DNA of 64,000 bases. Origin: Lachnospiraceae bacterium. GTDB taxonomy: Bacteria > Bacillota > Clostridia > Lachnospirales > Lachnospiraceae. Below, piece by piece: positions 21,547 through 24,101 of the stretch. How positions within the stretch are numbered: position 1 is the first letter of the stretch; each line of letters starts with the position of its first letter. A program made the translations under genes and the position numbers. The stretch lies in the NCBI GenBank assembly GCA_017555455.1, contig JAFZGJ010000195.1, forward strand, positions 87,284 to 151,283, written 5' to 3'. Under the pieces are notes generated by a model. It did no database searches and had not been told where the DNA came from. It saw nothing but the letters and a program-made list of their open reading frames with translations.

Positions 21547-23070
21547 ATGAACACATTATTAAATGGAATGAAACAGAGCGCAAATGTTTGCAGAACTGAA
21601 AATGGTGGGGCTTCTTATAAATCTACCATGAATGGCTTAATGGACTTATTTGCATTAGGTGGAGCATATCGCTCTAGAACAGAAGAAGATGTAATCTTAT
21701 TGTTCGATAAAGCATTTAAAGAAGATGAAGTATATGCTTTAAAATGTCTGTTTTATCTGCGCGACGTGCGCGGAGGCCAGGGCGAAAGACGCTTCTTCCG
21801 CACTGTGTGCAAATGGTTAGCTAAAAATCATACTGAAGCGATGCGCCGCAATTTAATCTATGTTCCAGAATTTGGTAGATGGGATGATTTATATATCTTT
21901 GTAGGTACTCCTTTAGAGACAAACGCATTAGATACTATGAAACATCAGTTTGCATTAGATTTAGAATCTAAAACCCCATCTTTATTAGCGAAATGGCTGA
22001 AATCTGAGAACACTAGTTCTGTTGAATCTCAGAAATTAGGTAAATTAACTCGTAAACATTTTGGTTTAACTGCGCGTCAGTATCGCAAATCTTTATCTAT
22101 GCTGCGCGAACGCATTAATGTAGTAGAAAGATTAATGTCTGCTGGTCGTTGGGATGAAATTGAGTTCGATAAAATTCCATCTAAAGCTGGCTTAATTTAT
22201 CGCAATGCCTTTGCCCGCAGAGATATGATTAAAGCAAAATATGAATCTTTCGCAAAATCTACTGAAACAAAAGTAAATGCAGGTACATTATATCCTTGTG
22301 ACGTAGTTAAACAAGCAAGAGAATTAATGATGCCTAATTATTGGAGTTCTAGAAAAGTAGCTATGGATGACACAGAACGCTTAATGTTAAATAAATATTG
22401 GGATAATTTAACAGATTATTTCAATGGTGCGACATTTAATGGGGTTGCGGTTGTAGATACTTCCGGTTCTATGACTTCTACTTATGGAACTTCTGTGGCA
22501 CCTATCGATGTAGCAGTAGCATTAGGGTTATATTGCGCAGATAAATGCGGAGTGAGCAGCCCATTTTATAATCACTATATTACATTCTCTAGAACCGCAA
22601 GATTAGTAGAAACCGTGGGCGTAGATTTCTGTGATAAAGTAAAACGCATTACAGAAACTAATCTGTGCGACAACACTAATATTGAGTCTGTGTTTAATCT
22701 GTTGATTAATACAATTAAACGAAATAATGTGCCTGCCGCGGATATTCCAGAAAATGTAGTAATTATTTCTGATATGGAATTTGATTATTGCACTGAATAC
22801 GGTGCTCGAGGCTATCAGAAAACTAATTATCAGTCTGATTTAGAAAGATTAGCAGAACGATTTACTCGTGAAACTGGCTATGAATGTCCTAAATTGATTT
22901 TTTGGAATGTAAATGCTAGAAATGATAGAATCCCAATGCAGGATAATGGTAGAATTACATTTGTATCTGGTTATTCTCAAACAACTTTTGATATGATTAT
23001 GACTGGAAAGACAGGTATTGATTTAGTTAAAGAAAAATTAGATAGTCCTCGTTATTCAGTTATTAAATAA
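21547..23070 (+). CDS. vWA-domain protein (MIDAS DTSGSM) with helical N-domain (TROVE/DUF2828-like?)
   Basis: RBS AAAGGAGA; motif. Confidence 0.55.
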   Translation: MNTLLNGMKQSANVCRTENGGASYKSTMNGLMDLFALGGAYRSRTEEDVILLFDKAFKEDEVYALKCLFYLRDVRGGQGERRFFRTVCKWLAKNHTEAMRRNLIYVPEFGRWDDLYIFVGTPLETNALDTMKHQFALDLESKTPSLLAKWLKSENTSSVESQKLGKLTRKHFGLTARQYRKSLSMLRERINVVERLMSAGRWDEIEFDKIPSKAGLIYRNAFARRDMIKAKYESFAKSTETKVNAGTLYPCDVVKQARELMMPNYWSSRKVAMDDTERLMLNKYWDNLTDYFNGATFNGVAVVDTSGSMTSTYGTSVAPIDVAVALGLYCADKCGVSSPFYNHYITFSRTARLVETVGVDFCDKVKRITETNLCDNTNIESVFNLLINTIKRNNVPAADIPENVVIISDMEFDYCTEYGARGYQKTNYQSDLERLAERFTRETGYECPKLIFWNVNARNDRIPMQDNGRITFVSGYSQTTFDMIMTGKTGIDLVKEKLDSPRYSVIK

Positions 23071-23144
23071 CCATCTCAAAAAATACAGGACAAAAATTAA
23101 CAAAACTCCTCTTAATATAATTAATTATATTAAGAGGAGTTATT

Positions 23145-24101
23145 ATGAGTAAAATGATAGATATTACAAATCAAAAATTTGGAAAATTAACTGCATTATA
23201 TCCAATAAAAAAATCAAATCCATTAAAATGGCATTGTAAATGTGATTGCGGAAATGAAGTAGATGTACGGTCTATTTATTTAAGGAATGGTCATACGACT
23301 TCGTGCGGTTGTTTAAAGAAAGAAAAATGTCAGAAAATGGGCAAAAACAATATTCATAATTTAATTGGTGAACGCTTTGGGCATTTAACAGTAATTAATA
23401 TGAGTAAAAATAAAACAGGTACCAATTACAAATGGATTTGTAAATGTGATTGTGGAAATGAGGTAGAGGTTGCTGGAGCAGATTTAGTTTGTGAAAAAAT
23501 TAAATCATGTGGGTGTCAGCGTTATAATAAAAATTATTTAATTGAAAATATGATTGGGAAACAATTTGGTAAATTAACCGTATTAGAATGCGTAGGGCAA
23601 GCGCCAGATAAATCATTTAATTACTTATGTAAATGCGATTGCGGGAATACTAAGATAGTAAATGGCGTTTCTTTAAGAAAAAAAACTACTTTATCATGTG
23701 GTTGCATTAATTATTCTATTGGAGAAAAGAAAATAAAAAAAATATTAGATAATAATAAATTTTTATATATAAAAGAATATAATGTCAAAATAGGTGATAA
23801 TAATTATCGTTATGATTTTGCGTTATTAAATAAAGAAAATAATAATATTATTCGTTTAATAGAATTTGATGGAAAATAGCATTTTGAACCTTACTCAAAT
23901 AAAAATTGGGAAAATAATTGTCCATTAATAGAAAGACAAAAAAGAGACTAGATAAAAAATCAATATGCATTAAATAATAATATTCCATTGGTTAGAATTC
24001 CATATACTGAACGTGATAATATTACTTTAGATATAATAATAGGAGATAAATATTTAGTTAAAGAGAAACTGGATAGCCCAAGATACTCTGTAATTAAGTA
24101 A
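23145..24101 (+). CDS. homing-endonuclease-like protein: three N-terminal Zn-binding repeats (KWxCKCDCGNE) + DUF559/Vsr-like nuclease C-domain; 2 in-frame TAG; ends with duplicated C-terminus of upstream gene
   Basis: RBS AAGAGGAG; repeats; last 14 aa VKEKLDSPRYSVIK identical to end of 21547-23070. Confidence 0.55.

Follow-up and report, generated by a model that had tools for sequence, protein, structure and literature searches.

Why should the last residues of a phage protein be encoded a second time, in other codons, at the very end of a different gene lying just downstream? That is the question raised by a locus in the window, i.e., the whole stretch of 64,000 nucleotides of DNA analysed here. 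The answer reached is, with high probability, that a phage DUF2828/DUF7788 gene carries, within its last 15 codons, a free-standing homing-endonuclease cassette of 1,031 bp, and that the cassette came to be there by homing of the type proposed below.

The product of the host gene (Table 1) matches PF25043 (3.8e-35) and PF11443 (1.1e-30) in Pfam, and its alignment to phrog_850 (2e-117), which covers profile positions 1-475 of 476, identifies it as full length. Its ORF is complete, with a TAA stop and zero TAG codons, and no splicing is needed for it. It ends ...GIDLVKEKLDSPRYSVIK*, and the endonuclease ORF, from its ATG at 23145 to its TAA at 24099-24101, ends ...GDKYLVKEKLDSPRYSVIK*. The two have 15 identical end residues, LVKEKLDSPRYSVIK, encoded at 23023-23067 and 24054-24098, and the 15-mer would recur by chance somewhere in the window, all six frames counted, with a probability of about 1e-13. 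The first-pass annotation had seen these identical ends, which are real, and had put their length at 14, missing a Leu ahead of the residues that it listed; the start it gave for the duplicate, 23029, lies 3 nt beyond the Val codon (23026-23028). At the DNA level the copies have 13 identical nt, ATTTAGTTAAAGA, the sole 13-mer common to the host and endonuclease genes, and past it there are 11 nucleotide differences in 34 nt, affecting 9 of 12 codons and all synonymous, so that what had been said of identical residues in different codons is borne out.

Table 1. Features of the locus and of its paralog, in window coordinates
Feature	Position	Strand	Basis or remark
Suppressor tRNA, anticodon CTA	17680..17754	+	ARAGORN; Rfam tRNA 53.9 bits
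Host gene, DUF2828 + DUF7788 (vWA-like) phage protein, 507 aa	21547..23070	+	Pfam, phrog_850
Co-converted left flank, approximate limits	22960..23033	+	Switch from L081-like to L097-like
Left 13-nt junction identity, ATTTAGTTAAAGA	23021..23033	+	Only 13-mer common to both genes
Copy 1, imported replacement tail (15 codons + TAA), completes host gene	23023..23070	+	Codons unlike every endonuclease-free allele
Recoded patch CCT CGT TAT TCA GTT	23047..23061	+	5 synonymous changes vs CCA AGA TAY TCT GTA
Spacer, 74 nt, host stop to endonuclease start	23071..23144	+	L091-L093 layout alike
Perfect hairpin, 17-bp stem	23104..23141	+	Folding energy vs shuffles
Endonuclease ORF, 318 codons, TAG at 23877 and 23949 read as Gln	23145..24101	+	Native part ends 24062
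Right 13-nt junction identity	24052..24064	+	13-mer comparison of both genes
Copy 2, displaced original host 3' end (15 codons + TAA)	24054..24101	+	L082 alignment
Paralogous endonuclease, 235 aa, 3 in-frame TAG codons	62911..63618	+	28% identity, E 6e-25

The endonuclease ORF is open throughout only if TAG specifies Gln, a reading that is well supported by what the DNA of this phage, whose genome is about 151 kb, contains. The features of genetic code 15 found are a suppressor tRNA with anticodon CTA, a TAG at a conserved Gln position (TAG 23877 aligns with invariant Q245), and TAG/CAG/CAA polymorphism (codon 125 is CAG or TAG, and the gene at 24220 has a TAG/CAA site). The in-frame TAG codons are at 23877-23879 and 23949-23951, and with the standard code the ORF ends at 23879 after 244 aa; NCBI has a protein of that very length, MBR4983986.1, which belongs to the same cluster.

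Which of the two tails is the original? Ten loci without the endonuclease (L081-L089 and L101), with about 84-95% nucleotide identity to the window host gene, are informative. All ten have a single tail, with the codons CCA AGA TAY TCT GTA, running directly into downstream DNA, and the same codons are in all three complete displaced tails. CCT CGT TAT TCR GTT is found only in the copy-1 sequences of endonuclease-bearing loci, of which there are just two distinct ones, that of the window and that of L097. Endonuclease-free L082 aligns with the window to 23070 and resumes at 24054 for 2.17 kb at 92% identity; its tail has 2 nt differences from copy 2, and copy 1 has at least 5 nt differences from each endonuclease-free tail, at otherwise invariant sites. 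Because the endonuclease-free relatives carry one tail, with copy-2 codons and contiguous with downstream DNA, copy 2 is, judged by sequence comparison, the displaced original, and copy 1 is the imported, recoded version. The junction is the same in the 10 endonuclease-free loci and in at least four endonuclease-bearing contexts. Native-tail pattern scanning yielded one of these loci, L101, as an extra from JGI and zero from IMG/VR; exact-pattern scans gave no match in IMG/VR for copy 2 or recoded copy 1, nor in JGI metagenomes for recoded copy 1, and distant-mode blastn of GenBank phages gave no relative, just a 55-nt promoter-like match to Listeria phages.

Several expectations of the first-pass annotation can be judged from this. 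Phages without the insert have a single 3' end at exactly the place it had indicated; the insertion it had supposed near the 3' end of the vWA gene amounts to 1,031 bp in the last 15 codons relative to L082; and the host reading frame is kept full length, in keeping with its proposal that a second tail copy restores the host gene. The contrary scenario that it had named, an ancient fixed C-terminal-domain paralog, is excluded: presence and absence of the endonuclease vary among otherwise similar phages.

Defined against L082, the cassette consists of copy 1, the spacer and the endonuclease gene, the last of which no longer has a stop of its own. The host stop, the spacer and the endonuclease's own ribosome-binding site and ATG set its ORF apart from that of the host, and in L091-L093 the layout is as in the window with spacers of 73-78 nt. 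Rfam, applied to the whole window, gives tRNAs only, and so no self-splicing element around the endonuclease gene. The hairpin in the spacer has a free energy of -21.9 kcal/mol (z = -5.8; none of 200 shuffles was equally stable), and the ribosome-binding site, AAGAGGAG, is within its 3' arm, 4 nt 5' of the ATG. For T4 homing endonuclease genes it is established that a hairpin can cover the ribosome-binding site and that flanks are co-converted (PMC2988022). Expression of the window's endonuclease is probably late, since its ribosome-binding site is sequestered and its two TAG codons need the phage suppressor tRNA. Contig ends within the spacer were considered as a population polymorphism, and this was rejected as the ends fall in the 38-nt perfect inverted repeat.

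The protein has three Cys-rich repeats, with an invariant C-x-C-x-C-G ... C-G-C in the homolog alignment, followed by a C-terminal nuclease domain whose fold is Vsr-like. Pfam finds no NUMOD domain in it and just a marginal DUF2726 match (25.1 bits against a cut-off of 24.7), and searches of all PDB chains by phmmer and with a 51-sequence profile gave no match (E <= 10 and E <= 1). Invariant residues are D224, E240, D242, Q245, H246, D268 and K271; E240, D242, H246 and D268 are invariant, in that order, in 51 homologs, and may correspond to the composite catalytic motif E-D-x-H-D. With dN/dS of 0.04 (32-34 synonymous and 7 nonsynonymous changes), and 5 synonymous and 0 nonsynonymous changes after the first TAG, the gene is, to go by its substitutions, under strong purifying selection.

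How did the end of one gene become the end of another? The 51 homologs (293-314 aa) end natively at ...GDKYLVK, give or take a few residues, with their own stop; the 12-residue extension past that end is present only in the window's lineage, and copy 2 now provides the endonuclease ORF with its stop and its final 12-15 codons. The L091 endonuclease ends TAT TTA GTT AAA GAA TAA, and at the fusion point the family's ...TAT TTA GTT AAA GA meets the host's ...GAT TTA GTT AAA GA. From these sequences the in-frame fusion is traced to a junction at the 13-nt identity, where native YLVK corresponds to host DLVK. Tail duplicates are absent from the eight loci of IMG/VR that have an endonuclease downstream (L009, L014, L016, L020, L033, L048, L053 and L076) and from L091-L093; the fused form is considered lineage-specific because these more distant endonuclease-bearing loci show no duplicate. 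In what may be a second clade of the kind, alignments of the L092 host tail to endonuclease-free relatives, which have 83-86% identity, run out 25-37 nt short of the stop codon.

Is the cassette mobile? Over the first 945 nt its copies in L090 and L098 have a single mismatch, the following 48 nt contain 4, and all similarity ends there (Fisher p = 2e-5); near-identical cassettes in genomes with unrelated downstream genes point to a cassette that still moves. The window's host gene, for its part, turns donor-like some 60-90 nt before the insert: left of ~22941, 147 of 183 informative sites are L081-like, and from 22971, 18 of 22 are like those of L097, an endonuclease-bearing relative (Fisher p = 1e-8). 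In-frame insertion and a co-converted donor flank, which had been put forward as alternatives, are then both true and not exclusive, the one at the 13-nt junction and the other as the left-flank tract of ~60-90 nt. ‘Recent’, the word used earlier for the mobility, suits the spread, with its single mismatch between two backgrounds, and does not suit the origin of the fused architecture, as the three endonuclease lineages that have it are at dS ~0.2 from each other. What is seen at this locus, namely presence or absence at a fixed site, an intact selected ORF and horizontal spread with a shift in divergence at the edge, is what is seen with homing endonuclease genes.

It could be countered that the cassette is ancestral in the clade and that endonuclease-free alleles arose only by deletion between the direct repeats, i.e., loss and not invasion. 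The repeats, with their 13 identical nt and 34 of 45 nt shared in all, could mediate precise deletion; the L088 tail is chimera-like, with its 5' part as in copy 1 (GAA AAA TTA GAT AGT) and its 3' part as in copy 2 (CCA AGA TAT TCT GTA); and the dS values just mentioned mean that the architecture is not new. However, copies one mismatch apart occur in phages whose tails differ and whose downstream DNA is unrelated, and the donor-type tract stops 60-90 nt upstream, within a gene that is L081-like elsewhere; the near-identical copies and the tract each require transfer, which leaves the loss-only account unlikely. Cassette loss probably occurs too, gain and loss being compatible.

Quite unlikely also is that ordinary illegitimate or modular recombination, where the conserved gene borders on the variable tail-fibre module, produced the duplication in passing, with the endonuclease a passive, non-cutting passenger. 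The host gene is mosaic among relatives, and downstream modules differ among those without the endonuclease (the L082, L086 and L088 types). Against a passive role are the strong purifying selection, the coincidence of the breakpoints with the cassette edges, and the repeated occurrence of homologs flanking the host gene in many distant phages: among 80 IMG/VR loci, many, though not most, have one directly up- or downstream. Nevertheless, part of the mosaicism could be due to ordinary recombination at the module boundary, as the downstream module varies among endonuclease-free phages too.

Might the 12-residue host tail instead have been co-opted by the endonuclease, e.g., for binding a partner of the host C-terminus, and be kept by selection on the endonuclease? 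That it is in frame and unbroken in three of three full-length contexts, with all variable sites synonymous, would fit, but synonymous-only variation is also explained if each tail was recently a working host tail in its recipient; as about 50 relatives function without the tail, and as the structure model predicts disorder for the segment, with pLDDT below 50, co-option is very improbable. That the locus is an assembly artefact or chimera is hardly credible, since the breaks of Logan contigs L090, L095, L096, L098 and L099 inside the hairpin are a graph-assembly effect of the perfect inverted repeat of 38 nt, five ENA contigs (up to 151.6 kb) encode exactly this 318-aa protein while an NCBI genome bin has a truncated form, and independent samples give either copy 1 with the endonuclease start (L097) or the endonuclease with copy 2 (L090, L098).

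With homing as the favoured explanation, how would it operate? The endonuclease would cut endonuclease-free alleles near the junction, with the cut predicted at the LVK codons or 5' of them, and the break would be repaired from a cassette-bearing genome, with the host gene as left homology and the short displaced tail as right homology. Both resulting junctions would be immune to cutting, the right one because endonuclease coding sequence now lies to its left, and the left one because of the five synonymous changes at 23047-23061, which may also reduce repeat-mediated deletion of the cassette; from its sequence the recoded patch is thus a candidate immunity or anti-deletion determinant. As copy 2 is native from the 13-mer to the stop, its immunity needs recognition extending upstream of the junction, and that of copy 1 would need recognition at least 14-28 nt downstream of it; the two requirements together lead to a predicted recognition span of at least 25 bp, which is plausible. 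The patch may, however, simply be a divergent donor's tail and unselected, its linkage to the endonuclease being expected anyway for sequences less than 100 nt apart.

Does the family move elsewhere in the same genome? The paralogous endonuclease reported at 62911 is real, and it sits in an insert of ~1 kb that splits another gene, whose joined flanking exons match phrog_6721 across the junction. The name thyX given to the split gene is unconfirmed, as Pfam gives no ThyX match in it, and Rfam gives no group I intron around the paralog, at gathering threshold or E <= 1.

For uncultivated phages in which TAG is Gln, the locus documents endonuclease homing cleanly and as it occurs in nature, since its junctions have kept donor-type as well as recipient-type sequence. 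Such loci will be misread in gene calling and annotation, as with the NCBI entry, which is a fragment of 244 aa. Together, the 13-nt junction and the five synonymous changes linked to the endonuclease amount to a concrete and cheaply testable hypothesis of the target site. If the layout is common, it would explain intron-less endonuclease genes that use conserved coding homology on both sides and cross between phages with unrelated neighbouring modules. The broader proposal is that C-terminal replacement is, beside introns and inteins, a general third route into conserved phage genes, with the recoded tail a selected immunity or anti-deletion determinant and the displaced tail a portable right homology arm for any phage with the host gene, whatever lies downstream; that is possible and, at present, rather doubtful.

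Among known systems, the free-standing seg and mob genes of T-even phages, for which the term ‘intronless homing’ is used (PMC2988022, PMC2790892), similarly involve no intron or intein, are sporadic between conserved genes, and have flanking markers co-converted. However, the T4 genes are intergenic or divide a gene so that it yields two polypeptides (as mobE does to nrdA of Aeh1), and are not described there with a replacement 3' end or with fusion to a displaced one. I-Bth0305I, the intron-encoded prototype of the EDxHD family of Vsr-like homing endonucleases (PMC3239194), has no detectable sequence match to the window's enzyme, even by profile; the latter has three N-terminal Cys-rich repeats instead of NUMOD/HTH motifs, and no intron. 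While no description of a C-terminal replacement layout in phages was found in the literature, mobile ORFs (mORFs) that replace a C-terminus are known from fungal mitochondria, in Allomyces macrogynus atp6, Glomus atp6/atp9/cox2/nad3 and Endoconidiophora atp6/cob (PMC3630166, PMC6279837). The differences are considerable: the host here is a double-stranded DNA phage reading TAG as Gln and not an organellar genome, the endonuclease is Vsr-like where the others are LAGLIDADG or GIY-YIG enzymes, its ORF has a separate ribosome-binding site and start behind the host stop and shares its frame with the displaced tail that follows, not with the host gene that precedes it, and the duplication is a mere 15 codons whose copies encode identical peptides. 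Yet the order of elements is the same, i.e., gene core, inserted foreign C-terminus keeping the gene open, endonuclease ORF and displaced native C-terminus, and in both the native copy is closer to insert-free relatives than is the inserted one, so that by analogy the mobile C-terminus-replacing ORF of fungal mitochondria appears to be the closest known parallel.

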